IMG/VR virus record: IMGVR_UViG_3300022902_000006
Length of the DNA: 64,000 bases
DNA from: a virus
Strand: one strand, 5' to 3'
This document shows, in pieces, positions 28,651 to 64,000 of the stretch; within the stretch, counting starts at the first letter, position 1, and every line of letters starts with the position of its first letter. The notes beneath the pieces were generated by a model, which worked only from the letters and a program-made list of their open reading frames with translations, had not been told where the DNA came from and did not search any database. Made by a program: the position numbers and the translations under genes.

Positions 28651-28970
28651 GATCTAAAAACTCCATGTCGTCCTGACCATGGAGGTAGCACCCACTTGAA
28701 TCCTTGCAGAGGTATGAGTCCAGTCGTCGAAAGGCGCCTTTCGTACCGTGAGGAATACTTCAATTTGCGTACAAAGCGAATGACTTCTTCACCTTTTACA
28801 GCGAGTAGTAAATTGAAGTAATCGGAGCGGTACGAAAGGATGCCGATCGTTACTGGAACTCATGTTGGCCTTTGTCGGGAACTGGTGACTGTAAAAAAGG
28901 CCGTCGACGATGTATGGTGAAAATCTCGACGTTACGCCGAGGGGTGATCGTCACATCACACTACTGGGTA
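28651..28970. ncRNA. putative structured ncRNA carrying one copy of the array hairpin
   Basis: No convincing ORF; 12-bp + 11-bp inverted repeat at 28738-28839; GGCCTTT/AAAGGCC stem; hairpin CTCGACGTTACGCCGAG at 28925-28941; promoter motif at 28976. Confidence 0.5.
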
Positions 28971-29401: not shown

Positions 29402-29487
29402 GCGCGGGTAGCTCAGTGGTCAGAGCGCTCCGTCCTGTCCTCGGACAGCAGACGGCGAGGTCGGAGGTTCAACTCCTCCCCCGCGCA
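29402..29487 (+). ncRNA. tRNA-like RNA with the anticodon arm replaced by a long hairpin
   Basis: 7-bp acceptor GCGCGGG/CCCGCGC, canonical D arm, T arm GGAGG-TTCAACT-CCTCC; central arm CCGTC-CTGTC-CTCG-GACAG-CA-GACGG has no 7-nt loop. Confidence 0.8.
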
Positions 29488-29550
29488 CTCATTCCCCTCA
29501 CGGGTGTAAGGCCCGATTACCTAGTTTGACTCTGGGGAGGGGAGCCACAT

Positions 29551-29627
29551 ACGCCTGTAGCTCCAAGCTGGCAGAGCGCCCGGACTAAGGTCCCGGGAGG
29601 TCGCAGGTTCGAACCCTGTCAGGCGTA
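29551..29627 (+). ncRNA. tRNA-like RNA with an atypical anticodon arm
   Basis: Acceptor ACGCCTG/CAGGCGT, D and T arms canonical; anticodon stem CCCGG/CCGGG closes 9 nt (ACTAAGGTC). Confidence 0.75.
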
Positions 29628-30110
29628 TCAGGAACCCAGGCTCTTGATGTAGAAGTAGGCCGCTGCAATCGCGGCGGGGATCATCCCTCCCAGCAAACCG
29701 TAGAGCCCCGACTTCGCCTGCAGCCGTGCCACATCCACCTTCACCGCGTGGACGCTATCCTTCAATGCAGAGAGGGCGACTGTGAGCGCATCTGCACTCT
29801 CTTTGGCCGCTGTGGCTACCCCGGCGTCCCCTTTGGCAAACGCAGCCTTCAGCTTCTCTACTGCCTTCCGTAGTTCTTCGGCAGCGGCCCGAATCTCAGC
29901 CACGTCCTCCTTATGCATGTCGAAGATTTCTTCCTGGACCTGCGCAAACCACTCCAGGTAGTGCTGCACGTGCCGTGCCCACTCCTCCCACACGGGGAGA
30001 TCCTTCTCACTCTTGATGGGCGGCGGTGGTGGTAGAAGGAATTTACCGCTGTTCCTACGCGCCACCTGGTGCACCTGGGTAACCGTCGATTGAGGGCACA
30101 ACGACACCAA
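29628..30110 (-). CDS. coiled-coil protein with C-terminal TM helix (holin/XhlA-like architecture)
   Basis: Long amphipathic helix, then GLYGLLGGMIPAAIAAAYFYI; true start probably near 30066. Confidence 0.55.
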   Translation of the reverse strand: MVSLCPQSTVTQVHQVARRNSGKFLLPPPPPIKSEKDLPVWEEWARHVQHYLEWFAQVQEEIFDMHKEDVAEIRAAAEELRKAVEKLKAAFAKGDAGVATAAKESADALTVALSALKDSVHAVKVDVARLQAKSGLYGLLGGMIPAAIAAAYFYIKSLGS

Positions 30111-36066: not shown

Positions 36067-36079
36067 GTTGTTACCCATG

Positions 36080-36152
36080 TGGAGGATAAGGGACTCGAAC
36101 CCTCGACCCCGGGCTTGCAAAGCCCATGCTCTCCCAACTGAGCTAACCCCCC
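36080..36152 (-). tRNA. tRNA-Ala(UGC)
   Basis: Full cloverleaf, G3.U70, anticodon loop TT-TGC-AA; CCA not encoded. Confidence 0.95.
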
Positions 36153-36220
36153 CGAAAAAACCCGTGCACGTTACACGGGGCGCATCTCTTGTACATGATT
36201 GACCAGAGGCGTCCCTCTCA

Positions 36221-36295
36221 TGGCTGGGGCAGGAGGATTCGAACCTCCGAATGCGGGCACCAAAAACCCGTGACTTACCACTTGTCGACGCCCCA
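36221..36295 (-). tRNA. tRNA-Gln(UUG)
   Basis: Full cloverleaf, loop TT-TTG-GT, encoded CCA. Confidence 0.95.
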
Positions 36296-49826: not shown

Positions 49827-50382
49827 CTTTGAGCGCCCGCACGATGTCCTGATACAGGGTCTCGTCGTGGCTCTTGGCTAGTGGTATGCACCTGGTCAAC
49901 AGTGCGCAGGTAACGGTCATGGCGGCTACACGCTTCCGAACACGGGCCAGCTCCACGTTCAGCGCATCCACGTTATCAGCCTCTATGCCGGCCCACTTTC
50001 GCACGCCCTTAACCTCGGATCGGAGCGCATCACGTTCTTTATCCAGGGCCTCAACCCCCGCCTCAACCCGACTCCCCGAAACAATCCGCCACACGGTAGC
50101 CAGATCTGCGACGGCCTGCTCTGGAGCCCACCCGTTGCAGTTGCGGATGTGGTTGCGCTCCAGGCGCTGTAGTGCCAGCGGTGCATCGCCGTCCGATCCA
50201 TCTTGACGCCCGGACACGAGCCGGGTCAGGGTCGCGAGGGCTTCCAGGGTTTCTGCCTTGGGGTGTATGCCGAGTCGGCCTGTCGCGTTGATATAGTGCC
50301 GCACGGTGTCCAGCGCCCGCAGCCCGTCGCGCTCCTGGTCCTGGTTAGGCCTCCGATCTCGGCTGTTAGGTTTTGGATTCAT
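49807..50382 (-). CDS. hypothetical helical protein
   Basis: 191 aa. Confidence 0.55.
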   Translation of the reverse strand: MNPKPNSRDRRPNQDQERDGLRALDTVRHYINATGRLGIHPKAETLEALATLTRLVSGRQDGSDGDAPLALQRLERNHIRNCNGWAPEQAVADLATVWRIVSGSRVEAGVEALDKERDALRSEVKGVRKWAGIEADNVDALNVELARVRKRVAAMTVTCALLTRCIPLAKSHDETLYQDIVRALKDGEKNG

Positions 50383-50566
50383 TTCTCGTCTCCCCCTTGC
50401 TGCAAGCGGTAAGAAGTGGGCGTTTTAGAAAGCACCACGCGATACTGGTTTTATGGGGGTCATGGTATGCAGACACCAACTCCCACCCCTCTGCGCCTAA
50501 TTCATTCAACAATGCTTCGATACATTCACCAGGGTGCTCGCACGTCGTTTTATACTCCCACTTCAT
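50366..50566 (-). CDS. DUF4177-like protein
   Basis: MKWEYK...LNELGAEGWELVS...FLKRP. Confidence 0.75.
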   Translation of the reverse strand: MKWEYKTTCEHPGECIEALLNELGAEGWELVSAYHDPHKTSIAWCFLKRPLLTACSKGETRNESKT

Positions 50567-50748
50567 GGCTGCTCCTTAGTGGTGGGAAGCGGACGCCCCA
50601 TTGAGTCGACGGTCGGCTCAGAGCAAAGCTTGTCCATTAATTTGCGGAGGCGCTTCCTGTTGGTCTCAGAGCACTTGCCGCACCGAGTCTTCCCAGGGTG
50701 CCCGGGCATGGCTTCGGCGTATTCCATTCCGTGTTTTTTACAGATCAT
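50563..50748 (-). CDS. small Cys-rich protein
   Basis: CKKHG..CGKC. Confidence 0.5.
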   Translation of the reverse strand: MICKKHGMEYAEAMPGHPGKTRCGKCSETNRKRLRKLMDKLCSEPTVDSMGRPLPTTKEQP

Positions 50749-50954
50749 GACTGCCCCTTAGATCTGGCTCGGCGTTCCAGGTCGCACATCTCGCCCTCTT
50801 CCCTGACCTGATAGAACGCGCCCTGCCAGAAGATGGATATCTTGCTCTTGGCTTTGTGTTTTATTTCCCCAAATACCACCCCGCGCCCCAACGACAAGCC
50901 AAGGGTGAAAGCCACCAAGATCAAAATACCGCCGATTGTGTAGAGAGTTATCAC
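50745..50954 (-). CDS. small membrane protein
   Basis: N-terminal TM helix. Confidence 0.5.
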   Translation of the reverse strand: MITLYTIGGILILVAFTLGLSLGRGVVFGEIKHKAKSKISIFWQGAFYQVREEGEMCDLERRARSKGQS

Positions 50955-51442
50955 GTCACTTCTCCTGTCCGGATCCGGCCTTCGCCTTTAGTTCTGCCTT
51001 CTGTTTCGCCCTGGCCAACGGCCCGCGCCGCTTGTGCGTGCCCTTGCGCCATCCAAGGTGGCGGCGGATCACGCTGTGATGGATGCCTATGATTTTCTGA
51101 ATCTTCGGCCATGAGCAACTCCACACTCAACCAAATCAGCCACCGCGCACCCGGCAAACCCAGCGCCTGGATCCGCAACCATGTGCCGGTCGCCGCGCCA
51201 GTGGTTCGGGTCGCCGTCGTAGGGTATGCCGCACGTGGAGCAGCGGTGGACGCAGGCCCCGCACACCGCCAGCACCAGGACCGCGTCCCGTTTTAGCTCG
51301 GCGAACCTGTGACAGACGGGACACCAGCCCCATCCGCACTCCGGGCACGTCGGGCGGTGGTCATCGGCCTCGCGCTGGAACTTGTGGCCGCAGTGGTCGC
51401 ATGTGTCGCGGACTGGCGGCGGGGCGTCGTAGGGGTAGCCGG

Positions 51443-51703
51443 TCACGAGACCGCCCCCAAGTGCCACAGGAGCCGCCAGGCGATCCCCTCGTGCGCGTAC
51501 CTGGTCTCCTCACAGCCTGGTGTCGCGCAGGAGCCGCCCCAGAGGCCGTCCTTGGGTCTGAACTCATGATCGAGCCGCGGGGCCAGGAGGGTGCTCAGGG
51601 CGCGGTAGGTGGCCAGGCGTCTGGCGTATGCCTTCAGGCGGGCGCCGTTGCCTTGTTGGTGGGTTGTGCTATTCTGTTTGGACATCTGATCTCCTTGTTT
51701 CAA
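51443..51703 (-). CDS. hypothetical protein
   Basis: 86 aa; C..PGC motif. Confidence 0.4.
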   Translation of the reverse strand: MKQGDQMSKQNSTTHQQGNGARLKAYARRLATYRALSTLLAPRLDHEFRPKDGLWGGSCATPGCEETRYAHEGIAWRLLWHLGAVS

Positions 51704-51845
51704 GCCAGGCCCTGTTCACGCGGGGCCTGGTGTACCTGAGTAATACGCGTCGTACGTCCAGTGCATCCTGTACTCGTCGGGACCGAACCTTTCGAGGCCG
51801 TGATCGTAGCTGCCGCTGGTGTTGTATCTACCCATCACCACCTCC

Positions 51846-52052
51846 TCACGCGTAGTGCGCATGGTCTGGGCAATAATGCCACTCAAACCTAGCGGACCCA
51901 GGACCCCCGGGGGGTTCTATCTGCACACGCTTCATCCACCCGCTACTGCTAATCTCCGGATGCGGTTTAATCGTGGCGTCACAAGCGTCACACTCCAGTC
52001 GCACAAGAAACCTCCTGCCGGTACCCTCTTCAACTGCGTAGACCTTAGCCAT
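51846..52052 (-). CDS. small zinc-binding protein
   Basis: CDACD..YCPDH. Confidence 0.5.
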   Translation of the reverse strand: MAKVYAVEEGTGRRFLVRLECDACDATIKPHPEISSSGWMKRVQIEPPGGPGSARFEWHYCPDHAHYA

Positions 52053-52239
52053 CGATCGGCCCCTGCGGCAGAAGCGCCCAGTGTTTGCCGTCCCAGTAAT
52101 ACCACCCCAGGTCAGTCTCGACGTACCAAGCGTTGCGCTCCGTGTTGTAGCGCATGGAAAGAACCTCCTTACCGGGAGGATCAGAGAAGCTGTACTGTTT
52201 GAGAATACGTGCATGGTGCTCCGTCATCCGCATCGTCAT
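52045..52239 (-). CDS. hypothetical protein
   Basis: SD GGAGGAGG; 64 aa. Confidence 0.55.
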   Translation of the reverse strand: MTMRMTEHHARILKQYSFSDPPGKEVLSMRYNTERNAWYVETDLGWYYWDGKHWALLPQGPIDG

Positions 52240-52964
52240 GCCTCCTCCTCCTCATGTGCAGGAAGTTGTAGCTTCTCCCCCACCGCCAGCGCGTGCAACT
52301 GCCGAATAGACGAAAGGCCAAGACGCATCACCGCTGACATCGTGAACGCCTCAATCTCCGCCTTGCCTGCCACGACAACCTTCTCCGCAGCCTCCTTGAA
52401 GGACTCAACGGCAAAGGGGCGGTTGGCCTCCACCTCGCGCATCACGTACTCCAGGACACCTCGTAAGTGCTCGCGGTCTCCCTTACCGATGCGTGACTTC
52501 CTGAGTAGCGACAGCCCGTGGTCAACCTTCGCCCGGAGCTTATCGACGATCTCCGCCTGGTCCTCAACGAAGCCACGCACAACCCTCTCAACCTCTGTCT
52601 TCATCGACGGTGCGATGCCTGGCACAGATTCACCACCGAGACGCGAAAGCGTACAGGGGACACCCTCTCCCATGTTGGGCGTCGTAAGGAACTCTGCGTA
52701 TTGTGCTTGGCTCAGGTGCACTTCAACGATGTTGCGCCCCGAGGAAAACCAATACCTCAAGAGGTGAAACCGTCGCTTGCTGTGTTTGATTTTGATGCAG
52801 ATGAAAGTACCGTGGTCTTCGATTGCGGAGCCATACAGCTTGGCGTGGCCCTGCACGCGAGTCACACTGATCTGTCCGTACGCCGGATGTGTCTCCAGCT
52901 CTTCAGTCTCTCCTGGAGTAGTGCCCGGGACCTTGGTGATCTTCGGTTCGCGAGTGGGGGTCAT
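52236..52964 (-). CDS. conserved-type phage hypothetical protein
   Basis: HPAYGQI..SR..G..LYGS, EVHLS.AQ.AE, GEGVPCTL. Confidence 0.7.
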   Translation of the reverse strand: MTPTREPKITKVPGTTPGETEELETHPAYGQISVTRVQGHAKLYGSAIEDHGTFICIKIKHSKRRFHLLRYWFSSGRNIVEVHLSQAQYAEFLTTPNMGEGVPCTLSRLGGESVPGIAPSMKTEVERVVRGFVEDQAEIVDKLRAKVDHGLSLLRKSRIGKGDREHLRGVLEYVMREVEANRPFAVESFKEAAEKVVVAGKAEIEAFTMSAVMRLGLSSIRQLHALAVGEKLQLPAHEEEEA

Positions 52965-52973
52965 CAGCGCAGC

Positions 52974-53225
52974 TCAGCTATTACGTCGGATGAGTTCATC
53001 GACCCTCTCTGCCTTTGTGGGACCCTCGCTCCAACCCTTCTCCGGATCAGGGGCCTCAATTTGTTGTACTCGGTTCAGCGTCGTGGGGTGGAGAATCCAC
53101 AAGCTCCCATCCGCGAATCGCTTCCGGGGCCACGACGATCTCTTCTTCGCACGATCCCGCGTGAGGCGGTCCAGCGCACGTTTCAACGACGCACGCCGCT
53201 GCTCCTTCGACTTTCTCTTGGGCAT
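52974..53225 (-). CDS. basic hypothetical protein
   Basis: 83 aa; SD AAGGA. Confidence 0.5.
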   Translation of the reverse strand: MPKRKSKEQRRASLKRALDRLTRDRAKKRSSWPRKRFADGSLWILHPTTLNRVQQIEAPDPEKGWSEGPTKAERVDELIRRNS

Positions 53226-53253
53226 CTATTCCTTTTTTAGCTTAAAGTGGTGT

Positions 53254-54081
53254 ATGGCCAAAGATCATGTAACCAAATTCGACGCTGTAGCGGGTGGTAT
53301 CGTAACAGTAACAACCTCCGACAACATCGAAGATTGTACCAACGCCGCAGATGTCGTGGCAGTCAACGATGTTGTTTACCTCAACGCGGACAACCAAGTA
53401 GCCAAGGCAAGTGCCACTAGCGCGCACAGGGTATTTGGGATCGTCTTTGAGATAACCGACTCCACGCATTGTCGTGTTATCACAGGCGGATTGATTGAAG
53501 GCTTCAGCACTGGAATGTCAATCGGCGACGACTACTTCCTGGCGGAGAATGGTGCACTGCACCTGGTCCCCGACCCCTACCACCACCGCATCGGTTTTGC
53601 GTTCAACGCTACGGACCTGTTCCTCCGCATCGAGAAGCCCCAAGCAGTTGTCATGGGCTCGTGTCTGGTCACCACTCTCGGGGGAATAACGTTAACCACA
53701 AAAGATACGTGGTACTCGTGGACGGGGCTTTCTCCTGCGGTGTGGGCGGATGTAGATGAGGACTTGTTCACTCACGCGGATGGCGTCCTAACCCACATCG
53801 GCGGTGCACATTGCTGGGCGCTGTGTTCCTGCCACATCTACGCTTCATCCACTACGATAGGGCCGTACCACCTCGGTATTTCACACAACGGGGATGACCC
53901 TGACCTCTACAGCACCATGCGCTTAGCTGGAACAGCTAACAGCTTCACCATGCAAAGAGCCATTTATGTGGCAGAGGGCGACACATTGGAACTTATGATG
54001 CAGAAGCCCGGTGTAGACGGCTGTTGGGTACAGGTCAATACCGGGTCCTGGTTCTCTGCGGTGGGCTTGAATCTGAAGTAG
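53254..54081 (+). CDS. isolated virion-type protein (DUF2190-like N-terminus plus beta-sandwich)
   Basis: VAVNDVVYL..KASA..GIV..VITGG..GDDYFL..G matches the 2169 and 3277 domain; C1q/BclA-like C-terminus. Confidence 0.55.
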   Translation: MAKDHVTKFDAVAGGIVTVTTSDNIEDCTNAADVVAVNDVVYLNADNQVAKASATSAHRVFGIVFEITDSTHCRVITGGLIEGFSTGMSIGDDYFLAENGALHLVPDPYHHRIGFAFNATDLFLRIEKPQAVVMGSCLVTTLGGITLTTKDTWYSWTGLSPAVWADVDEDLFTHADGVLTHIGGAHCWALCSCHIYASSTTIGPYHLGISHNGDDPDLYSTMRLAGTANSFTMQRAIYVAEGDTLELMMQKPGVDGCWVQVNTGSWFSAVGLNLK

Positions 54082-54156
54082 CAACCCCAACGGGATTTGA
54101 ACCCGTGTCACCGGCGTGAAAGGCCGGTGTCCTTGGCCATGCTAGACGATGGGGTC
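54082..54156 (-). tRNA. tRNA-Glu(UUC)
   Basis: Full cloverleaf, loop CT-TTC-AC. Confidence 0.95.
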
Positions 54157-54193
54157 TAAACAACAGGGGGAACTCCTCCCCTGCTGCGGCAGT

Positions 54194-54283
54194 TTACAGC
54201 ATGAACATCATTCCGATCCAGAGCGCGATGACGACAGCGCCACCAACGGTCTGAACCAACTCTTGTTTGTCTTCCCGCGTCAT
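54194..54283 (-). CDS. 29-aa membrane peptide
   Basis: Read by hand: SD GGAGG, MTREDKQELVQTVGGAVVIALWIGMMFML. Confidence 0.5.
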   Translation of the reverse strand: MTREDKQELVQTVGGAVVIALWIGMMFML

Positions 54284-54314
54284 GTACAGTCCTCCGGGCA
54301 TTCTCTTGTACCCG

Positions 54315-54569
54315 TTAGAAGCGTTTCTTTGTGACGTACACGCGGTCCTCGTTGTCCCAATCCTCCCACGTATCGCCGTTGTCCAACTCCAGACTACGCA
54401 CGAACTCAGTGGGGTGCTTGATGACCTTGATGACCGTCAGACACTCACTCTTTTTCGGCGGTGTGTCTGTGGTGAGCGTAACGAGCATGTCACCCTTCTT
54501 GACCTTCTCTACCTTCTTCAGGGTGAGACCAGCGGGGAGCTTGGATGTCTTAGTTTTGCGTTTCGCCAT
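54315..54569 (-). CDS. basic SH3-like hypothetical protein
   Basis: VKKGDML..VIKV. Confidence 0.55.
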   Translation of the reverse strand: MAKRKTKTSKLPAGLTLKKVEKVKKGDMLVTLTTDTPPKKSECLTVIKVIKHPTEFVRSLELDNGDTWEDWDNEDRVYVTKKRF

Positions 54570-54834
54570 CTGGCTCTCCCACGAGGTGGCTCAAAAGCTG
54601 ATGACACTTCTGCTCATATGTCTGGATCCGCTCTTCAAGAGAACGCACCAGCGCCACATCCTTCGTGATGCCCGCCTCCAGCTCCATGAACTGGCGCAAC
54701 CGTTGAAAACGATCAGTGGTTGACACATCAAGGCCCAACTCCTTCGCGCGTATGTGCACACGCGGGTCCCACCCACCATTGAGCTGCGACGCCTGTACGA
54801 CGACAACCTTCGGTCCTGTACTGGTATCCGCCAT
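54550..54834 (-). CDS. hypothetical protein
   Basis: 94 aa; coupled to the YkgJ gene. Confidence 0.55.
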   Translation of the reverse strand: MADTSTGPKVVVVQASQLNGGWDPRVHIRAKELGLDVSTTDRFQRLRQFMELEAGITKDVALVRSLEERIQTYEQKCHQLLSHLVGEPDGETQN

Positions 54835-55256
54835 CAGCCCACCTTCCATTCGTTGGGTTTTGTCGCCATGGTACCACCACGCGTCATGGGCAGACCCCCG
54901 GGCGCGTGATCACGATAGAACGTCGCAATAGCGTTCTTGCAGTGCTGACTGCCTGGCGTGAAGTCCCGGCACACCTTGGGGCGCCCCTCGTAGACATCGC
55001 AGCGACAATCCACGAGGACACGCCCCTTGAGCGCGATGCACGCGGGGCCGTCTGGGTGTGACTTGTTCACCCGAAGACCTTGGTAGAAGTGTCCATGCAG
55101 GTCAGGAGAGCACACGTAACGCTGGTACGCCTCGGGGAGTCGCTCCAAGTCCGCGTCAGTCACCTCAGCGTAGTAGTTGCTGGCGTGACCGCCGCTCGCC
55201 GGAATGTCGGAGAGGCAGCAGATGCCACACTCTTGGCAGTTGAATTCCTCTGGCAT
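54834..55256 (-). CDS. YkgJ-family Cys-cluster (Zn/Fe-S) protein
   Basis: CQECGICC ... CIAL...CRCDVYEGRPKVCRDF..C. Confidence 0.85.
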   Translation of the reverse strand: MPEEFNCQECGICCLSDIPASGGHASNYYAEVTDADLERLPEAYQRYVCSPDLHGHFYQGLRVNKSHPDGPACIALKGRVLVDCRCDVYEGRPKVCRDFTPGSQHCKNAIATFYRDHAPGGLPMTRGGTMATKPNEWKVG

Positions 55257-55258
55257 GA

Positions 55259-56209
55259 CTACGCCAGCTCGTCGAGGTAGCGCTGGACGAAACCCTGCTC
55301 GTGGCCCAAGGCAACCCACTTCCAGAAGCCACGACTCAGCTCAGCGGCGTCGACGCGCGCCAGGAACTCGGTGCACTCCTTGTCGTGCTGCGCCACCACG
55401 CGCTCACCCGCGTCCTGCAGCGTATCCACCAACTGCTTCACCACCCCGTTCTCCCGCCGCAGCCGGTACACCTCATCCTGCAGCGCGTTGACGTCCTCGG
55501 GGATGTTGTTCCCCTCAGCCCAGAGCGCGCGGGTTTCCTCATCCATGGGCTCCTCGGGGGACTCGCTGGTGACACCCGCGTACATGGACTCAGCCGAGTC
55601 ATTCGCCTGAATGGCCGCGTTGTGGTCCACGTGATCCACGGAGGACGCATGCATCTCCGCCTCCTGCTCGGGGGTGAGGAGCTTCTTGAGAGGGGCGTTC
55701 TTCACCGCCTCAGTGATCTCCGCGCCCTTGCCCGTGCCGACGTTGAGTGCCATCGCCTTGAGCTTGTTGCTCTCCCACTTCCTCTTGCACACCTGGAAGT
55801 ACGCCTTGCTGACCGGGCACTCACCCTTGAACGCCGCGACCCACCACCCGGAGAAATCCTCGAAGGTGAGGGTGGGATCCGTGTCCAGGTACCGGTGGAT
55901 CATCTTCGCCTGGGAGTCACCCTTCTGCGGCTGCACCTTGGTCTTGGGGGTAAACCCTGGCTCCTTCTGAGGGAGCACCGCCGCTTCCTCACCCAGCAAC
56001 TCGATACGCTGCTTCTTGTACATGCTCTTGGCCTGGATGTAATACTTCTTCTTCACCGGGCAGATAGCGCGCTTGCCCTTACCCTGGGCCTTGCGCCACT
56101 CGTTGGTGAACTGCACGTAGTTCATCTTGACCCACGTACCATCTGCCGCGTGCTCATTGAGCACATCCCACACCTGCTGCTGCAGGCTCGGTCCTTTCTT
56201 CTTTTTCAT
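55259..56209 (-). CDS. hypothetical protein with a duplicated N-terminal motif and coiled coil
   Basis: F..W......CPV.K.Y...K repeated twice; strong codon bias. Confidence 0.65.
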   Translation of the reverse strand: MKKKKGPSLQQQVWDVLNEHAADGTWVKMNYVQFTNEWRKAQGKGKRAICPVKKKYYIQAKSMYKKQRIELLGEEAAVLPQKEPGFTPKTKVQPQKGDSQAKMIHRYLDTDPTLTFEDFSGWWVAAFKGECPVSKAYFQVCKRKWESNKLKAMALNVGTGKGAEITEAVKNAPLKKLLTPEQEAEMHASSVDHVDHNAAIQANDSAESMYAGVTSESPEEPMDEETRALWAEGNNIPEDVNALQDEVYRLRRENGVVKQLVDTLQDAGERVVAQHDKECTEFLARVDAAELSRGFWKWVALGHEQGFVQRYLDELA

Positions 56210-56211
56210 TT

Positions 56212-56988
56212 CTACGTCTCCGGATGGTTGTACGGCTGATACGTCGCCGCGTAGTTCTTCGCCACAGGCAGCTCTTCGAACTGACGCCATTCGCGCCACA
56301 AATCCTCAAGGAACCGCTGCAACATGTAACGCTTCGCCGCTTTGTCCCGGTGGCTTCCATTCATACCCCAGGGGGCGGGTCCACCTGACCCACCGCAGTT
56401 GCGACACTCGTGTCCGTAGAATGTACCCTTGCCTTTGCAAGCCATGCAGATGGGGACCATGGTGGTCTCCTTCCGCTGCTTGTAGTTGTTGTAGTGTGTG
56501 ACGTACGGCTCTGTGCCGTGCTGCAGGAACTGATTCGCGATGCGGTCTGAACGGCACTTGCGGTACGAGGATACCTGGGTAGCAGGGAGTGCACGCCCGT
56601 TGCGGGGTGCTACGCCCCACCAGGCCCACAGGGATGAGGGGTGTGGGGCCTTGCTAATATCGATCTCCCCAATCAGCGCAGCGCCGAGCGCCGGGCCAAT
56701 CCCTTTGATGTCCCGCAACCAGTGCTGCCAGAACTCCTCTTCCTTGAGCGCCAGATGCATCCGTCGGTACAGGTCCTTCTCCGACACATTCGCAACGTGG
56801 ATCATCTCCCGCGCGAAGACCGGCGTACGCCCCTTACCCACCACCTTGAGCAGCTCGATACGACACTGCTGGGTGTGGTGGTAGACACGCGCCACCTGAG
56901 CCAGCTCCGAGTAAATGCTCTTCTTGACCACCACCTTGCGCACTCTGGTTGCCCTCTTCTTGGGCGCCACCTTCTTCTTGGGCCTCAT
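56212..56988 (-). CDS. IS110 C-terminal / Nop-like RNA-binding domain protein lacking RuvC (TasA-like)
   Basis: WLRDIKGIGPALGAALIGEI...SSLWAWWG (Transposase_20 HhH motif); H.DKAAKRYM..FL..LW..WR..E.LP; CxxCxGxG Zn insert; no DEDD domain. Confidence 0.7.
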   Translation of the reverse strand: MRPKKKVAPKKRATRVRKVVVKKSIYSELAQVARVYHHTQQCRIELLKVVGKGRTPVFAREMIHVANVSEKDLYRRMHLALKEEEFWQHWLRDIKGIGPALGAALIGEIDISKAPHPSSLWAWWGVAPRNGRALPATQVSSYRKCRSDRIANQFLQHGTEPYVTHYNNYKQRKETTMVPICMACKGKGTFYGHECRNCGGSGGPAPWGMNGSHRDKAAKRYMLQRFLEDLWREWRQFEELPVAKNYAATYQPYNHPET

Positions 56989-56993
56989 GGCAT

Positions 56994-57233
56994 TTAGGGC
57001 CTCCTCTGCCCTCGCTCTTCCGGCGTCAAACAACTCGCCGGGTGCTCCATCTCATCATACTGCTTGTCCGAGATTCTTCCGTCTTTGCACAAGCCGTCTG
57101 TGAAATCGTTGAACGCCTCGCACCGTGCTACGTAGTCAATCTTTCTATCCTGCTCGTAGGTGTCACGCACACCCGGAAGTACGCACTGCGTGAACTCGCG
57201 AACCACCTGGGTCCACGTCATGTAACGACTCAC
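56994..57233 (-). CDS. hypothetical protein
   Basis: SD AGGAGG, GTG start; R.AFNDFTD.LCKDG.I motif. Confidence 0.65.
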   Translation of the reverse strand: MSRYMTWTQVVREFTQCVLPGVRDTYEQDRKIDYVARCEAFNDFTDGLCKDGRISDKQYDEMEHPASCLTPEERGQRRP

Positions 57234-57638
57234 ATCCCTCCTACAAAGAAAACGTGCACCGCCCCCGTATCCTGCCGTCCCCGCAGGGACGACGAGTTGG
57301 ACATAAGGGGCAGTGCACCGATGGGATAACGACCTCCGCGCGATCCGTGATGCGTCGCCGGGGGTTGGGAGTGGCGCGCAGACTCTTCCGGAGATACGGG
57401 CTAATGTCAGCCCCGCACAAAGCCTACGGCCCCCACGTGTTAGGGCTCGCTGGGTCGACGCTCGCCGGTCTTGGAGCGTCGCCTTTGAGTGGCGAGTTAC
57501 TGCGGTACTACTTCTCCTCCTCGTTGTGATGTCGTGTAAAGGTGATTCCGGACTCCCCGGATACCACCCGCCGCTCCCACCACACCCGCCGAAGCAGGTG
57601 CAGTGAGGGCGGTCTTGTCTTGTTGGTCGTCGCACCCG

Positions 57639-58106
57639 CTACGCGGGGGCCTCCTCCGTCTCCAGCGGACCCTCGAACGGCGTCTCCACGACCTCCTCCT
57701 CCTCCTTGGGCGGCACGCTGGTGGGGTACATCCACAGGGACGGCGCCTCCAGGTCGCGGTCGCCGAAAACGACGCAGGGGATGTTCTCGTCCGGGTCCGC
57801 GTCGCCCGTGGGGATGACGACACCGTGACCCGAAGCAGCGGACACCGTGCCAGCGGCAGCGAGAGACACACCACGCTCGGCCTTGGTGGAGGCGAAGTCC
57901 AGCTTCACCGACGCCCATGCGCACGCCTTGCCCATCATGCGGAAAACGAACCCCAGGGCGGCGAGCACCATCGCCGGGACCCCGAAGACGAAGGCACCCA
58001 TCATGCACAGCACGACCGCCACGACGGCCACGATGACCAGCACCATGCTGAAGGAGTACGCCAGGCCACGCAGGGCCACAAACTTCGCACTGAGTTCTTT
58101 CTTCAT
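57639..58106 (-). CDS. membrane protein (two TM helices)
   Basis: SD GGAGG; long hydrophobic N-terminus. Confidence 0.65.
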   Translation of the reverse strand: MKKELSAKFVALRGLAYSFSMVLVIVAVVAVVLCMMGAFVFGVPAMVLAALGFVFRMMGKACAWASVKLDFASTKAERGVSLAAAGTVSAASGHGVVIPTGDADPDENIPCVVFGDRDLEAPSLWMYPTSVPPKEEEEVVETPFEGPLETEEAPA

Positions 58107-58207
58107 AATTCCCTCCGTAGGAATGTGGTTGAAGAATGGCTGCTCATCTTCTCGCGGTAACGAGAACACTTATTACGGTGTGGGGTCGAGTTGATGAGCG
58201 AATTAAG

Positions 58208-58251
58208 ACACTCGACCTTACTTTCTTGTACCTGTTTGGGTGGTTATTTTT
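58208..58251 (-). promoter_or_regulatory. duplicated promoter-leader block, copy 1
   Basis: ACACTCGACC-N5-TTCTTGTACCTGTTTG..TTTTT, same as 58811-58855. Confidence 0.65.
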
Positions 58252-58267
58252 GAACGATTTACGGCAT

Positions 58268-58294
58268 AAAAAAACGGGGGTTACGGCCCCCGTT
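58268..58294 (-). terminator. Rho-independent terminator
   Basis: AACGGGGG/CCCCCGTT stem with A7 on + (U7 on -). Confidence 0.75.
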
Positions 58295-58316
58295 GTACTG
58301 CTCACACCAGCCCGCG

Positions 58317-58718
58317 CTAATGCACCTGCACCCAGCGCCAGGGCTGAGGCGTGGTGTAGTCACGCGGGTCGAACGCCCCGAAGATGGGCTCATCCATGTT
58401 CACGCGACGACGCAACCCGTACCGCGTGGACGAGAAGGACTGCGTGTCCTCCAGGATGACGCTGTCAATGCCCAGCAGCACCTCGGCCATGAAGAAAAGG
58501 GACCGGGTATTGCGCACGTCGCTCTCGCGCCGCTCGTACAGCTTGTGCAACAGCGGAACCATGTCTGGGTTCACCAGCAGGACCTGGGTGAGCGCCTGCT
58601 CAACCACAGCACCCTTCGCCGCCAGGTAACGGTTGTCCGATGCCCCAACAACCTTGAACCACGCCTGCTCAGCGCCATACTGGATGATATCCAGAACCAA
58701 CTCTGCTACATCTTTCAT
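58317..58718 (-). CDS. orphan protein (133 aa) adjacent to the hairpin array
   Basis: SD GAGGAG, own promoter and terminator, strong codon bias. Confidence 0.75.
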   Translation of the reverse strand: MKDVAELVLDIIQYGAEQAWFKVVGASDNRYLAAKGAVVEQALTQVLLVNPDMVPLLHKLYERRESDVRNTRSLFFMAEVLLGIDSVILEDTQSFSSTRYGLRRRVNMDEPIFGAFDPRDYTTPQPWRWVQVH

Positions 58719-58810
58719 GATGTATTGCTCCTCTCTCCGGATGAGAGATCATTACGCCTCGTCACTCTATAAGGGCACGGTCGATAAGACGAGACGTGTT
58801 CAATGGTTGA

Positions 58811-58855
58811 ACACTCGACCGCATATTCTTGTACCTGTTTGAGTATCATATTTTT
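58811..58855 (-). promoter_or_regulatory. duplicated promoter-leader block, copy 2
   Basis: See 58208-58251. Confidence 0.65.
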
Positions 58856-58862
58856 AGGATCT

Positions 58863-58885
58863 AAAAAGCGGCGTGGGAGCGCCGC
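58863..58885 (-). terminator. Rho-independent terminator closing the array on the - strand
   Basis: GCGGCG/CGCCGC stem followed on - by T5. Confidence 0.65.
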
Positions 58886-61240
58886 AGTGATGCCTTATGT
58901 AATGGGGCCAGAGACCAACTTCGAGGTGCAAGCTCGAAGTTGGTCTCAGCAGGCAGTAATAGCATCTCCCTCACCCCGGAGATGCCGAGCACTGCCGAAG
59001 GTCTAATACCGACGTTGCGCCGGTCGCTCTAGGAGCACGCATCACTTGTTGGTACTTACTTACTACAAACAACCACGATACTTGAATCTCCCGCTCCTGC
59101 TGGTGTGGGACAGTTTTGTGGGGTAGTACGTAGGCCACCCCACAAAGTCTCGTGACCATCCCGCCAGGCTTGGTGGGGTGGGTAAGAACGCCCCACGGCG
59201 CAGTATGTGCCTAATACGTGGGCGTAGCACCCACACGCCGCCAGGACGTACTATCGTGGTGATTCCTTCAGTTGACGATCCAGGTGGGGTTCACGAGGTG
59301 GGGACTAACCTCGTGAGCTTCACCCAGTCGCCGTAGTGCCCGGTACACGACCTTCGGTCGTAGTCCGGGTCAGGCATTTGTTACTACTCCCTGCGAGCGT
59401 GTCGCTCGCCGTGCATGCTAGTACACACGAATCACCGGTCTCACTTCACTATCCCTCAGAGGGTTCTTTTAATAAGGCGTGCGCCGCGATGTTTGTGGAA
59501 GGGATGTCGCGTAGGCATGGGTGTAGTCACTTTGTCAAAGTGTCTGTACCCAGGGCGTCCACGTGACATCACTCCACGTGTATCAGCGAAGCTACCCCGT
59601 GGGCGGTGCGCCCACCACTTACGTCGTGCGTTGAGACCTAGTTTTGAACTAACGCGCTTACTTGTCTGTCACCGGAGATTGACCTATTCGGCTGAGGTGT
59701 TGGTGGAGTCCGGCACGAGCCGGACGCCCAACATATTCAGCGATGTCGCCCTTTTCGTTTATATGGGTGTAGCACCCACCACGTATCAACAACCACTAAG
59801 CGCGAGTTGCTAGAGCTAGAGAATGTGGCGAATCACTTCGTCGCGCCCTCTGCTTCGTGGGGTGTGACATCGGCGCGCGGCACCTTGCGCGACAATGTCG
59901 CATATCGTGAACCGGAGTTCAGTACCGTATGTGGGCGTTGCACCCACGCCACGTCCTGTGAACCAACTACACGCTTTCGTATGTACCTTATTCGCTTATT
60001 GGTGAGGAGGGAGCCCTCCTCGTCGTTAAAGGTGCAAATACACACCCGCCGAACAACCCTCGCATGTATTTGTACCGTAACGCGGGGGAGGTGCGTACGC
60101 CCGAACAACTCACCGAGGTTTCTACCACTCTACGGTGTCGTTTCAACACCTGTGAATTCGTTGACCGAATAAGGAAACGCTCACTAACAATTTTGACAGG
60201 GCGGAGTCGCGTAGGCTTCGGGAGACTCAGTGTTCCGAAGTCTAGGTGGCTCCGCACAAAGATGTTCTGGGTTCGGATACGGTGGAGGAGCCTCGCTTTA
60301 TCGGCGCCGCCTTAGCAAGCTGATTGAGGCGACGATATCCGAAGCTCCACCGCGTATCGTGTACCTGGCGACGTTTCGTCACCACCACGTCTGTGACGTG
60401 TACTGAGCGTTCAGGTTGTTGCTTTGGATTAGGACCCCAGTGGAGAGCGAATCGCAAGTTCGGATCACGTGATGACAGTGCTTTTGAGCACAGACTCAAA
60501 GGGATCCGTGCGCAGCGAGTCGCGATATCTTGATGAATGATCTAACTGCACGTCCAAGACGTAGTCGTCGGACTGCACCAGAGGGAAGTTAGATCAGACG
60601 GCAAGATCTCCTGAGCAATCACGTGGGCGTAGCACCCACACGCGCGCAGCGTACCAACAACCAGTTTACGGCGTAAATCGTACCTTATCCTCACTAGGGG
60701 CTGTCATCGACCAAGATGACCTATTGCTGAGTGTGGGACGCGCTAGGCGAAGCCTGAGCGGCGTACCGCATGTAGCGTGTGCTGCTTACTACTTGTGGTG
60801 GCGGTGCGCCACCTATGTAACCGACGTCGGTTAACGACTGAGGACAAAACACTCGCTTGAGTCTCTAAAAGGTGTTGTTCAAGCACGGCAATTGAAGGGG
60901 TCAAAACACGCTTTGCACCGCCGCAGCGGGGCAGTGTTTTGGGAACTACAACTGTCGGGGATGGATATAACACCTCTAACAGTAATGGTGGTGTTGCACC
61001 ACCGCCTGACCTGATCAGGTTTACCGAGTGTGTACTGTGAAGCGCTGACTTCATTTTACGATAGAAACAGATAGTGGGATGTCACACGACATCCGCTTTG
61101 GTGTGGCGGTCATCTCCGGGTGTCCCCGGGGACTGGCCTACCGCTACGGCGGAGACACTACTGTGTGGACTGCTCTTATCCCGCGCATCCTTCCGCTGAC
61201 GTTACGTCAGCTCCCTGGGAACCTGGCCAGGCTTTCTCAG
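58886..61240. ncRNA. structured non-coding array: 12 units of about 200 nt, each marked by a 17-nt hairpin
   Basis: No credible ORF over 2.35 kb; dense long helices; periodic hairpin (see next feature). Confidence 0.8.
59008..61211 (-). repeat. 12 periodic 17-nt hairpins (7-bp stem ending YG/CR, 3-nt loop)
   Basis: Starts at 59008, 59218, 59393, 59599, 59763, 59931, 60134, 60367, 60623, 60797, 60987, 61195; all fully paired (WC or G.U) on the - strand. Confidence 0.85.
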
Positions 61241-61246
61241 CGCTAC

Positions 61247-61975
61247 TTACTTCTTGTTGAACATCGCCACCATATCGGCGTACGAGGAGGGCTTGAACTG
61301 CTTGAGGATATCGAAGGAATTGTCTTGTAGGATGGAGAGTCCCATGAGTGTGACCGTGGGAAGTGTTCCAGGAGCCATCACGCCACCTTGCCCCGCCGCA
61401 CGCATAAATGCGACCGACGACTTGAGCACATGAGCCTCTGCCTCAGTGGTGTCTGGAGTAGCCACGGTGTGCCCTGAATCCTTGGCGCAGTCCTCGGCGG
61501 GGGAGATGACGCAGTGGAAGCGACACATCGCCGGGCGGTACTTGTAGATGGTGCAGTCGTGTGTCTTCTCATCCACGAACCCACACATATTGTTGCTATC
61601 GAACCAATCTACTGCAGATACCTTATCCTGGAACTTGGCCTGGAATTCCAGCACGGACAGGAGCGACATCAACTTCTCTTTTGGGTAAAGTTTGAGGAGG
61701 TAGCGAGCGATAACCAACCCTTCGGCGACCGTGGCAAGGACCTGCTGCTTACAACATGCAGTGCACCCACGCGTGCAGGAGACGGTTTCACCCTGTGCCT
61801 CCTCGAATGCTTGTATCTTGCGCAGAAAGCGCTGATGCACGAGGTCCAACATATCCTCGAACACGTCAAGAAGTAGGTTCAGCTCTCCACAAGGTGCGTA
61901 GTGCCCGCGCTTGGTCAGTCTTCTGCTCTTGTAGCCCTTCGGCTTCTTCCTCGGCTTCTTTGTCTTCTTGGGCAC
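61247..61975 (-). CDS. YkgJ-family Cys-cluster protein with Lys-rich N-terminus
   Basis: SCTRGCTACC ... CGFV...CTIYKYRPAMCRFHC; SD GGAGGAG, GTG start. Confidence 0.85.
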   Translation of the reverse strand: MPKKTKKPRKKPKGYKSRRLTKRGHYAPCGELNLLLDVFEDMLDLVHQRFLRKIQAFEEAQGETVSCTRGCTACCKQQVLATVAEGLVIARYLLKLYPKEKLMSLLSVLEFQAKFQDKVSAVDWFDSNNMCGFVDEKTHDCTIYKYRPAMCRFHCVISPAEDCAKDSGHTVATPDTTEAEAHVLKSSVAFMRAAGQGGVMAPGTLPTVTLMGLSILQDNSFDILKQFKPSSYADMVAMFNKK

Positions 61976-62660
61976 GCCACTCCTCCCTGAGTTTGTCGTA
62001 TTCCTTTCGCATGCTGTGAAACCGTCGACCTCCATCAGGTCTCTGGTTGTCTTTAGGGTCCGACAATATACGCCAACCCGCGTCGTCCTCCGTTCCACGC
62101 CCACAGAACCACGCCTGGCACGTAATGGGCCTCGTAGCGTAGATGGAGCAGCGGCAACCCTTGAGGAAGGGACAATCCCCGTCATCGAAGTGCTTGAGGT
62201 ACGTGTATGTGTTGGGGCGAAACACCCCAAAGCCCGACGCAAGGTTAGGCGTCTCCTTCTCCCCGGGCTCTGGTGCCATGGAAGCGTTGCGTATGAGCCC
62301 CCGGAAACGCCACAACCTGTCCCGAGGATACACGCACACCTCGAACACACGGCAGCAGCGAGCGTCGCACGTCGCACACACCTCGTGGGATGTCTTGTTG
62401 TCGTGGGAGAATGCACTGTGGGGCCAGCGGTCATCAGGGCCAATCTCGTGGTCGTCGAAGTCGGACTCCACGATTGTTTTTAGCCTCTCCACAAGCTCTG
62501 GCTCTTCAGCCTCCACCTCTTGGACGGCCTTAATGCACTCTTGCAGCTCCACCATCTCGTCTGGGGTGATGACGCCACGAGGGGTGATGGTGTCCTCTTC
62601 GCTAAGTGCTTGTTGCTCCCCCTTGAATGTTTTGAGAGACATGAAGACACCGTCAGCCAT
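61866..62660 (-). CDS. YkgJ-family Cys-cluster protein with acidic N-terminus
   Basis: CATCDARCC ... CPFLKGCRCSIYATRPITCQAWFC. Confidence 0.85.
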   Translation of the reverse strand: MADGVFMSLKTFKGEQQALSEEDTITPRGVITPDEMVELQECIKAVQEVEAEEPELVERLKTIVESDFDDHEIGPDDRWPHSAFSHDNKTSHEVCATCDARCCRVFEVCVYPRDRLWRFRGLIRNASMAPEPGEKETPNLASGFGVFRPNTYTYLKHFDDGDCPFLKGCRCSIYATRPITCQAWFCGRGTEDDAGWRILSDPKDNQRPDGGRRFHSMRKEYDKLREEWRAQEDKEAEEEAEGLQEQKTDQARALRTLWRAEPTS

Positions 62661-63264
62661 CGAGCATCTCCAGCACGCTCTCCGCCAGAAGCGCAGCACC
62701 CTTGACTCGTAGGGGGTCTCGGTTGTCCTGCGCCAACGTGGAAACCTCTTCAGCCAGCTTGCGCAGCAGCTCGTGTTCCATGGTTAGGCGTGTGGCCCAC
62801 ACCAACGTGTCGTAGTGTGCATCGAAGAGCCGAATAGCGTCTGCCTGGGTCTCCGGCTCCTCCCCCTTGCACAAATCGCCGAAGAACTCCTCCGCGTAGA
62901 ACCTAAGTGCCTTCTTGGTAGCGTCGAGAGCACCCTGCACACCTTTGGACCACTTCACAGGGCATTGAGGAGAACCCACAGGTCCCTTTTGCCCCTCTGA
63001 AGCAGGAGTATGGTAGTACATCGCCTTCACGGAGCCCTCGTACAACCCAGGCCAACACGCTGGGCACGGTTTTCCGTAAAGGAAGCGGTTGTGCTTGGCG
63101 CAGCACGCATCGGCGGGGGTATTGAAGCGGTGACTCTTCAACAGGTCCACGTCGAGCTGAAAGCCAGGCAGGTGCACGCCACATATAATACACATGACCT
63201 CCGTGGGGCTTCGGAACGCCGCGCTGCCAATGGGGTGGCCGCAGGGGAGTAATACATTACTCAT
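62653..63264 (-). CDS. Cys-rich hypothetical protein
   Basis: SD GGAGG; CGH, CIIC, CC..H and CPAC motifs. Confidence 0.55.
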   Translation of the reverse strand: MSNVLLPCGHPIGSAAFRSPTEVMCIICGVHLPGFQLDVDLLKSHRFNTPADACCAKHNRFLYGKPCPACWPGLYEGSVKAMYYHTPASEGQKGPVGSPQCPVKWSKGVQGALDATKKALRFYAEEFFGDLCKGEEPETQADAIRLFDAHYDTLVWATRLTMEHELLRKLAEEVSTLAQDNRDPLRVKGAALLAESVLEMLDG

Positions 63265-63643
63265 GGCGAGCCACCTCCAACGCTTCCTGCTGCTGCATGT
63301 ACGCCGCCACACCCTTCAAAGTACCAAACACCGGGATACCACACATAGTTGCCCGCGCACTCTCCGCCCGTGCACCCGCCGACGCCTCCCAGTTGGGGAG
63401 TAGCACCATGATGTCGCACCGCTCCAGCAGCTCCACAGTCCCGGCCAACCAAAACTCCTCTGTCAACTGCCCGAAAAAGAGATGGGTGTTGGCATGGGGA
63501 ATGAGGGGCATCACCCCCAGCTTCGCTACCTCCAGGGCAAGCTCCTCCGCTCGCCGCACATTCTGTGCGATGTCCCAGGTCGTTTCACCAGTGAACGGGC
63601 CTGCGATGTAAGCGATCTTCAACCGCCTCTTCGTCTTTGCCAC
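63257..63643 (-). CDS. DUF4406/DUF1937-like (deoxyribosyltransferase-fold) protein
   Basis: IAYIAGPFTG, PLIPH, ELLERCD..VLLPNWE.S.GA..E. Confidence 0.8.
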   Translation of the reverse strand: MAKTKRRLKIAYIAGPFTGETTWDIAQNVRRAEELALEVAKLGVMPLIPHANTHLFFGQLTEEFWLAGTVELLERCDIMVLLPNWEASAGARAESARATMCGIPVFGTLKGVAAYMQQQEALEVARHE

Positions 63644-63745
63644 TCTGCTCCCTCCGTTGGGTAAATATTTCGTCGCTGCAGCGTACATGCACAGCGCACC
63701 TTCTAGTACCACTACGTAGTACGTATTTGTGAGTGGTACACCGTA

Positions 63746-63958
63746 CTACGGAGCGCCGTCCTTGTCCGACTCCCGGTGCGGAGCGTCGAGCACGTCATCC
63801 ACGGCGACGAGCCCACGCTGCAGTGCACGCCACCCGCCGACCACGAACTTGAAGCCCAGCACGATGGTGAGGAGCGCAGCCACAATCAGCGCGTACACCC
63901 CCCAGAAGAACACCACACCACCTCTCGTGGCTTGTGGTTCAGAATCCTGCACCATCAA
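63746..63958 (-). CDS. small membrane protein
   Basis: SD GGAGG; TM helix. Confidence 0.55.
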   Translation of the reverse strand: MMVQDSEPQATRGGVVFFWGVYALIVAALLTIVLGFKFVVGGWRALQRGLVAVDDVLDAPHRESDKDGAP

Positions 63959-64000
63959 TCACCTCCAGAATTCACGACCTGGGCACCCAGCGCAGCGCTG

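Follow-up and report, generated by a model that had tools for sequence, protein, structure and literature searches.

The gene analysed here, tasA, lies on the minus strand of a 64,000-nt stretch of DNA (hereafter, the window, to which positions refer unless the genome is named) from a marine phage genome represented by one contig of 180,179 bp. Genome positions 1-133 recur at the contig end (180047-179), as would be expected if the assembly is circular and closed or if the genome has a short terminal redundancy, and because the first bases recur in this way, we treat the assembly as closed. The gene is the second of three in an operon that runs from a 75-aa ORF through tasA to a 316-aa ORF, behind a structured leader that opens with a degenerate hairpin copy (57625-57637, 2 mismatches; Table 1). 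The tightness of this operon, with its stop/start overlap, does not suggest that tasA is a mobile unit. If translation began at a TTG at 57033 instead, the protein would be 15 residues longer (273 aa); the ATG at 56988 is the likelier start, given its distance of 5 nt from the stop of the 75-aa ORF and its position behind GGAGG. The product of the 316-aa ORF is a candidate operon partner of TasA; this ORF stands where some TasA loci carry tasParB, and none of the tasA neighbours is ParB-like.

Table 1. Features of the tas operon and of the hairpin array, with positions in the window
Feature	Position	Strand	Basis or remark
316-aa ORF, no known family	55259..56209	(-)	ATG overlaps tasA stop
tasA (P0001), 258-aa solo Nop-domain TasA-type protein	56212..56988	(-)	ORF call, Pfam, PDB profile matches, AF2, Foldseek
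13-mer GGGTGCTACGCCC	56605..56617	(+), antisense to tas	identical to array hairpin cores 59220, 60625 (-)
75-aa ORF, phrog_336 (E 1.8e-11)	56994..57221	(-)	stop 5 nt ahead of tasA ATG
tas operon leader, 415 nt, gene-free, strongly folding	57225..57640	(-)	z -4.0, 0/100 shuffles fold as well
Intrinsic terminator after 133-aa gene 58317-58718	58273..58294	(-)	
Intrinsic terminator closing the hairpin-array transcription unit	58868..58885	(-)	
12 hairpin-headed non-coding units, candidate TasA RNA partner	59008..61211	(-)	7-bp stem, 3-nt loop, YG-NNN-CR closure

The hairpins of the array start at 59008, 59218, 59393, 59599, 59763, 59931, 60134, 60367, 60623, 60797, 60987 and 61195, so spaced that units recur every 164-256 nt, with unit bodies of 147-239 nt. 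When G-U pairs are allowed, the stems are fully paired in 12 of 12 cases on the minus strand compared with 6 of 12 on the plus strand, which indicates a minus-strand RNA. Hairpins of this class occur 12 times in these 2.2 kb, whereas shuffled sequences contain about 0.07 per kb on each strand. The unit bodies share no k-mers beyond shuffled expectation, no relatives turned up for the proteins encoded on either side of the array (58317-58718 and 61247-61900), and the two-hairpin DNA pattern had no match in viral contigs. In phage lambda, the boxB consensus has a loop ending in A; a lambda-boxB-like hairpin was rejected here, given that the loops end in C. From the two terminators (Table 1), we conclude that the array forms its own transcription unit, apart from the tas operon.

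Hairpins of the same class are found elsewhere in the genome. A second element, of two units, lies on the minus strand at genome 41,860-42,290 (window -45,195 to -44,765; L131:3858-4292), with hairpins at genome 42026 and 42239, 213 nt apart (GCTGGCG-CAA-CGCCAGC and GGGGGTG-CTA-CACCCCC); the pair lies in a gap of 430 nt that separates the DNA polymerase A operon from a convergent terminase large-subunit gene, about 100 kb from tas. Single hairpins with a CG-TAA-CG or CG-TAG-CG closure are located at window positions 28925, 34943 and 40305 (-), the first two in gaps between ORFs of at least 70 aa, about 0.5 kb from a tRNA pair at 29402-29629 and about 1.1 kb from another at 36079-36295, respectively. 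The hairpin may be a genome-wide signal of transcript punctuation or processing.

Three CxxCxxCC genes (PF03692, YkgJ-type; 54834-55319, 61247-61900 and 61866-62699, all on the minus strand) bracket the tas and array region, and the latter two overlap each other directly upstream of the hairpin array. An Rfam search of positions 50000-64000 at E <= 1 returned tRNA-Glu only. Six contigs of metatranscriptome X17 match the region with 100% identity; tas accounts for one of them (56350-56539), the 133-aa gene for two and the array for at least three. Being RNA-library contigs at a depth of 2-4, they demonstrate neither transcription nor its strand or ends. The DNA sequencing runs contain no variants and accordingly offer no population-level covariation.

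The initial annotation described the tasA product, P0001, as a TasA-like, nuclease-less Nop-domain protein, and the comparisons of sequence and fold made here support this assignment. The motifs quoted in its support are present, namely the HhH motif KGIGPALGAALIGEI, the terminal motif HRDKAAKRYMLQRFLEDLWREWR (H..A.RYM..FL..W..WR), and CMACKGKG and CRNCGGSG, the zinc ribbon thus having the form CxxCxGxG...CxxCxGxG. In Pfam, the IS110 C-terminal domain (PF02371, Transposase_20) matches residues 90-130 with 27.1 bits against a cut-off of 21.3, the DnaJ-type CxxCxGxG match falls below threshold, and there is no match to the Nop domain, to DEDD (PF01548) or to HNH; at 258 aa, the protein is too short for a DEDD domain. 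In PHROGs, it falls in phrog_4285, annotated 'transposase' (E 1.5e-24). In a phmmer search of the PDB, P0001 by itself already matches two solved Tas structures, TaTasR (9MTY) at E 2.4e-7 and SpTasH at E 1.7e-5, and a family profile built from P0001 and 43 relatives (44 sequences) matches the same structures across the whole Nop domain, with E-values of 9.3e-42 and 9e-31, respectively, compared to only about 1e-3 for IS621 and ISCro4.

The AlphaFold2 model, for which the family alignment served as input, has a pLDDT of 92.7 and a pTM of 0.85. It begins with a basic disordered tail, followed by a coiled-coil hairpin (helices 13-50 and 57-82), the HhH motif and a beta wedge loop (124-140); two helices then lead to the zinc ribbon (176-210), after which residues 211-237 form the long terminal helix and a short tail ends the chain. 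The zinc ribbon is common to most of the 43 aligned relatives and is therefore a subfamily trait rather than a peculiarity of tasA of this phage; it occupies the site of a loop of similar length in SpTasH. A Foldseek search with the model places 9MTY at the top (TM 0.66, rmsd 2.3 A over 222 columns), followed by eight TasH chains and only then by IS621 and ISCro4. No Nop5/56/58 structure is among the Foldseek matches listed, the only spliceosomal entry listed being 5gan_F with E about 1. Given the matches to solved Tas proteins by both sequence and fold and the lack of a nuclease, P0001 is a true Tas/Nop protein and a TasA as Faure et al. 2025 use the term, namely for a solo Nop domain that lacks a nuclease (PMC12045711).

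An exhaustive HMMER search yielded 1,408 cluster representatives at E <= 1e-3, the best 150 of which are mostly 200-450 aa long. Among the representatives listed, P0002 alone is close to P0001 (63% identity), the remainder showing at most 47%. A single-protein scan of viral contigs and a tblastn search of GenBank phages found no relative of P0001, and a scan of genome contigs recovered just four distant loci. We collected 126 loci of relatives from viral and metagenomic contigs, 114 of them distinct; one of these, L050, is the locus of P0003 and came from the metagenome scan.

Most of these loci carry a TIGR array next to tas. Canonical arrays were read directly in L001 and L002, and the family unit is 36 nt long, with the form AGCGAGCC-N10-AGAAACCC-N10. 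A regular expression for this unit (GCGNGCC-N8-12-NNN[AC]CCC-N8-12-GCGNGCC) gave 700 matches on the tas-sense strand of the 126 loci versus 5 on the antisense strand. At least three unit matches within 3 kb of tas were found in 82 of the 114 distinct loci, and in 44 of the 61 loci that have at least 1 kb on both flanks. In the loci L047-L049 and L050, the array abuts the tas start codon, the spot filled in this phage by the 75-aa ORF. The array of L050 is a mini-array of one or two units with diverged repeats, directly abutting the tas ATG, and is missed by the family HMM.

Across the 126 loci, the two TIGR repeats are uniform among very different phages (AGCG[A/T]GCC and AG[A/C]AACCC, with 10-nt spacers). 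Moreover, the tas-proximal units of L001 (9490-9560), L047 (2813-2900) and L050 (8985-9057) contain a near-identical spacer, ATTGCCCGGAA or ATTGCCCGCAG, twice running, although the TasA proteins of these loci are well diverged from one another. A first guide that is conserved in this way could serve autoregulation or be directed against a conserved target. This leader-proximal spacer (ATTGCCCGG) has no counterpart in the 64-kb window.

The phage genome analysed here, in contrast to most of the relatives' loci, contains no canonical array. The initial annotation reported no 36-nt periodic array near tasA; this observation holds for the entire 180,179-bp genome, which was searched by four methods: fixed-period conservation of stacked units, clusters of recurring 6-mers, the family regular expression, and nhmmer with a model built from 400 real TIGR units. 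As positive controls, all four methods detect the arrays of relatives (L001, L002 and the 82 of 114 loci). In the whole genome, the regular expression gave 0 matches compared with 0.1 expected, and the best nhmmer match had an E-value of 9.4 and was far from tas. The only fixed-period array with a period that is not a multiple of 3 is a Cas12m CRISPR array (47-48-nt period, genome 158.4-159.6 kb), and the remaining fixed-period and k-mer signals are coding repeats. The family-specific searches would miss single units that are dispersed and have diverged repeats, as the mini-array of L050 illustrates.

Two candidates for a guide in the tas leader were considered and rejected. The first is a module resembling a stem-loop tigRNA at 57387-57434 (-), with a 6-bp stem, CUU, 10 nt, UG, a 7-nt loop, CCC, 11 nt and AG; the scan for such modules found 1 compared to 0.6 expected, which equals chance, and the two spacers of the module have no paired target in the genome. 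The second is a degenerate two-unit TIGR remnant (AGCGAGCC near 57450, followed 71 nt downstream by GCGCGCC), which has no nhmmer score and in which the intervening 'repeats' mismatch.

The C-terminal Tyr/His pair of SpTasH, Y289/H296, cuts pre-tigRNA, and H268 of that protein is also needed for tigRNA processing; the wedge loop and the region next to H268 contact the tigRNA (PMC13421893). In our alignment of 44 sequences, Y246 of P0001 is invariant and H255 is present in at least 90%; in the profile alignment, Y246 aligns with Y289 of SpTasH, and H255 is two residues off H296. Both residues of the putative processing dyad, known from the dual-repeat clade, are present in P0001. Arginine R235 is likewise the kept equivalent of SpTasH R278. 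In addition, P0001 has retained all six columns that are invariant across the 44 sequences. Of 61 columns with a conservation of at least 75% in the remaining 42 sequences, it has kept 44.

P0001 and P0002 jointly depart from the family at positions that are otherwise close to invariant. Both carry G139V, which alters the 'KG' of the wedge loop, and K224Q, each at a position 98% conserved in the other sequences, the latter equivalent to SpTasH K267, beside H268. Both also have a wedge loop shortened by the deletion of several residues near G139V and a coiled-coil motif changed from YD..R to HH..V, and the coiled-coil tip of P0001 is shorter than in its dual-repeat TasA relatives. In the maximum-likelihood tree, the two proteins form a pair with support 100/100 on a stem branch of 2.29 substitutions per site, nested within a 100/99 clade with the array-bearing L047-L049 and with L050 (mini-array). 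Thus, the proposed tree placement comes out among array-bearing Tas proteins; because of the long branch, the exact position of the pair is unsure. The substitutions common to two proteins that are only 63% identical point to a persisting lineage with altered properties rather than to a recent wreck and argue for persistence under constraint, as judged from the alignment; the loss of two near-invariant residues could equally mean that the ancestral activity has been lost.

Taken together, these results lead us to read P0001 as a functional, strongly diverged, array-less TasA of dual-repeat descent, with a probability of roughly 0.6. This reading follows from the contrast between the missing array and the retained fold, invariant residues and Tyr/His pair, and it builds on family membership, the nuclease-free fold, the genome-wide lack of canonical units and the divergence at conserved positions, all of which were established here. 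The ancestor would have belonged to the dual-repeat branch, with a 36-nt array adjoining the gene and its RNA cut by the C-terminal Tyr/His pair. A typical TasA, the nuclease-free effector of TIGR-Tas systems built from a coiled-coil and a Nop domain, forms a dimer, takes up a 36-nt dual-spacer tigRNA and represses by occupying matching DNA; TasA has been shown to repress transcription (Xu et al. 2026, bioRxiv 10.64898/2026.09.09.750476). In the lineage of this phage, the canonical array would have been lost genome-wide while the protein fold, the family-invariant residues and the Tyr/His pair were kept, and tasA would be expressed from its own operon behind the 415-nt structured leader. By homology, the array-less TasA would still bind, and probably still cut, some RNA, and would dimerise and act as a DNA-binding regulator or repressor; accordingly, dimerisation, RNA binding, RNA processing and repression are to be regarded as predicted properties of P0001.

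The nature of that RNA is the point at which the possible explanations diverge. The initial annotation proposed that the hairpin-headed units of about 200 nt may be guides or ligands of the protein. In its fuller form, this explanation takes the 12 units of the array together with the tas leader as the RNA partners of TasA, the Tyr/His pair cutting at the hairpins and the resulting RNP acting on DNA or RNA, possibly tas itself. We consider it possible but unlikely. Array and tas are encoded on one strand, with the array 1.9 kb upstream; the strongly folding leader (z -4.0) begins with the degenerate hairpin copy; and P0001 is devoid of a canonical guide source yet keeps the processing dyad. 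Furthermore, the changes specific to the subclade fall in the wedge loop and beside the equivalent of SpTasH H268, that is, in parts that contact the tigRNA in SpTasH (PMC13421893). In the sister-clade locus L050, the 295 nt directly upstream of tas open with a perfect hairpin of the same class, CGTGGCG-TAA-CGCCACG; RNA of about 190 nt that folds strongly (z -4.6) comes next, and then the mini-array. However, the case of L050 stands alone, and it would arise by chance with a probability of about 0.02.

A further hint comes from the 13-mer GGGTGCTACGCCC, the core of two array hairpins. It has three copies in the 180-kb genome, the sole copy outside the array being inside tas in the complementary orientation, so that 13 nt of the tas mRNA are an exact complement of the hairpin core; at up to one mismatch, the window contains 5 matches compared to 0.15 expected. 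The copy in tas falls on the WWGVAP codons, where the wedge loop starts, and there is no significant structure in the folding of the tas mRNA around it. However, the 13-mer is largely set by the conserved peptide WGVAP, and because 9 of its 13 bases are fixed by this peptide, we treat the match as unexplained rather than as evidence.

Several observations speak against the hairpin units as partners of TasA. The unit bodies share no motif beyond chance, and modules of the type stem-boxC-spacer-boxD-loop-boxC-spacer-boxD are not enriched (1 versus 0.6 expected). The units lack the four conserved boxes and the dual short spacers of any tigRNA, and the family TIGR repeat is absent from the array by both the regular expression and nhmmer. 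Two intrinsic terminators and two genes separate the array from tas, and hairpins of the same class occur at the distant sites described above (genome 42026 and 42239; window 28925, 34943 and 40305). The co-occurrence of homologues with the hairpin array, which could have linked the two, is not seen: hairpin clusters are absent from all 114 loci of relatives, and near tas the class shows no enrichment. Conversely, 82 of these 114 loci are paired with ordinary TIGR arrays, which weakens the guide hypothesis. What stands of the original suggestion are the faint hints from the leader, L050 and the 13-mer, and it has found no solid support; beyond proximity and these hints, nothing ties tasA to the hairpin array, and the connection is not established.

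A more elaborate scenario along the same lines appears distinctly improbable. It would have the P0001/P0002 lineage swap 36-nt tigRNAs for long hairpin-punctuated RNAs (the 12-unit array, the 415-nt leader and the dispersed copies), with the Tyr/His pair cutting at the 17-nt hairpins and the 13-nt complementarity to the wedge-loop codons of tas giving feedback. If this were true, the hairpin-RNA TasA would represent a third guide-RNA architecture in the Nop/Tas superfamily, nearer in size to the IS110 bridge RNAs.

The array-less TasA could also be served by guides that escaped detection, either dispersed, diverged solo tigRNAs in the phage itself or guides that the host, a prophage or a co-infecting phage provides in trans. 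This explanation, which we deem credible if unlikely, finds a precedent within the clade in L050, where the diverged mini-array of one or two units was missed by the HMM. It would also be in accord with the general shortfall of arrays across tas loci, only 6,685 arrays for 20,096 loci, for which the choice between another guide source and missed detection has been called open (bioRxiv 10.64898/2026.09.09.750476). The single stem-loop-like module in the tas leader near 57387-57434 could be counted in its favour as well. However, this module equals chance expectation and its two spacers lack a paired target in the genome, and no unit is found at E < 9 anywhere in the 180 kb.

Alternatively, the gene might be an orphan relic that lost its array and now either evolves by drift or has taken on a guide-independent function, for example, as a structural DNA or RNA binder. 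The long stem branch (2.29), the loss of two 98%-conserved residues, the change of the coiled-coil motif from YD..R to HH..V and the genome devoid of a canonical array would all fit such a course. We nonetheless find it quite unlikely, given that the ORF is intact, the model has a pLDDT of 92.7 and all six invariant columns are kept, that the substitutions common to P0002 at 63% identity indicate a lineage persisting under constraint, and that tasA sits inside a translationally coupled operon. The RNA-library contig over 56350-56539 also counts against a relic, though weakly, since DNA carry-over is possible.

Finally, the reading of P0001 as a truncated remnant of an IS110-family transposase, to which the PF02371 match and the 'transposase' label of phrog_4285 might lead, is refuted for practical purposes by profile scores that favour Tas structures over IS621 and ISCro4 by about 30-40 orders of magnitude and by the TIGR arrays at most relatives' loci, the lack of a DEDD domain and the abundance of full-length relatives (1,408 representatives) also counting against it. 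The share of the odds on the RNA partner that is left after the hairpin units, undetected or trans-supplied guides, guide-independent function or decay, and the IS110 remnant goes to other possibilities.

TIGR-Tas systems consist of a Tas protein and an array, and arrays were found at about a third of the tas loci in the 2026 survey; most array-less tas loci are on short metagenomic contigs, where the array could lie off the contig. The literature has thus already acknowledged array-less Tas loci, and what stands out here is the combination of a complete genome, clear descent and a retained processing dyad. Given the closed 180-kb genome, the array-bearing ancestry, the kept dyad and the lack of any canonical unit, we regard this phage as a clean test case. 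If long RNAs marked by hairpins prove to be the partner, they would constitute a new guide architecture; if P0001 binds nothing, it would be a record of how Tas proteins are repurposed or decay. The present analysis adds the family-wide comparison, the absence of the array from the whole genome, the dispersed hairpin copies and the terminators.

Among known systems, P0001 most resembles the dual-repeat TIGR-TasA (PMC12045711; e.g. FpTasA), with which it shares the solo Nop domain, the coiled-coil hairpin, the HhH motif, the wedge loop, the long terminal helix with a Tyr/His C-terminal tail, the basic disordered N-terminus and the location in a phage; the loci with context that are nearest to tasA are L047/L048/L049 (38% identity), L002 and L055. 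It differs from this type in having no 36-nt array beside the gene or genome-wide, in the shorter coiled-coil tip and wedge loop, in G139V and K224Q, and in its long branch. The Nop fold is like that of SpTasH (Salicola phage CGphi29; PDB 9W03/9W04; PMC13421893) and TaTasR (9MTY), with TM scores of 0.62-0.66, but P0001 has neither the HNH nor the RuvC domain; relative to SpTasH, it has Gln instead of Lys at the equivalent of K267, beside H268, and a Tyr-His spacing of 9 rather than 7 residues.

The array-less Tas loci of Xu et al. 2026 (bioRxiv 10.64898/2026.09.09.750476) are similar in that a viral tas lacks a detectable array. The array-less branch in that survey, however, consists of divergent compact TasR proteins without a coiled-coil, in stem-loop clades and in dense viral genomes without intergenic room, whereas P0001, a coiled-coil TasA, falls within the dual-repeat type and has kept Tyr/His, and the complete genome that encodes it contains large non-coding RNA-like regions. 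With IS110/IS621, P0001 shares a homologous coiled-coil and C-terminal domain, and the size range of bridge RNAs includes the hairpin units of about 200 nt near tas. However, P0001 lacks the DEDD domain, its profile match to this group is weak (about 1e-3) and there is no IS structure, and the hairpin units lack a conserved two-loop architecture.
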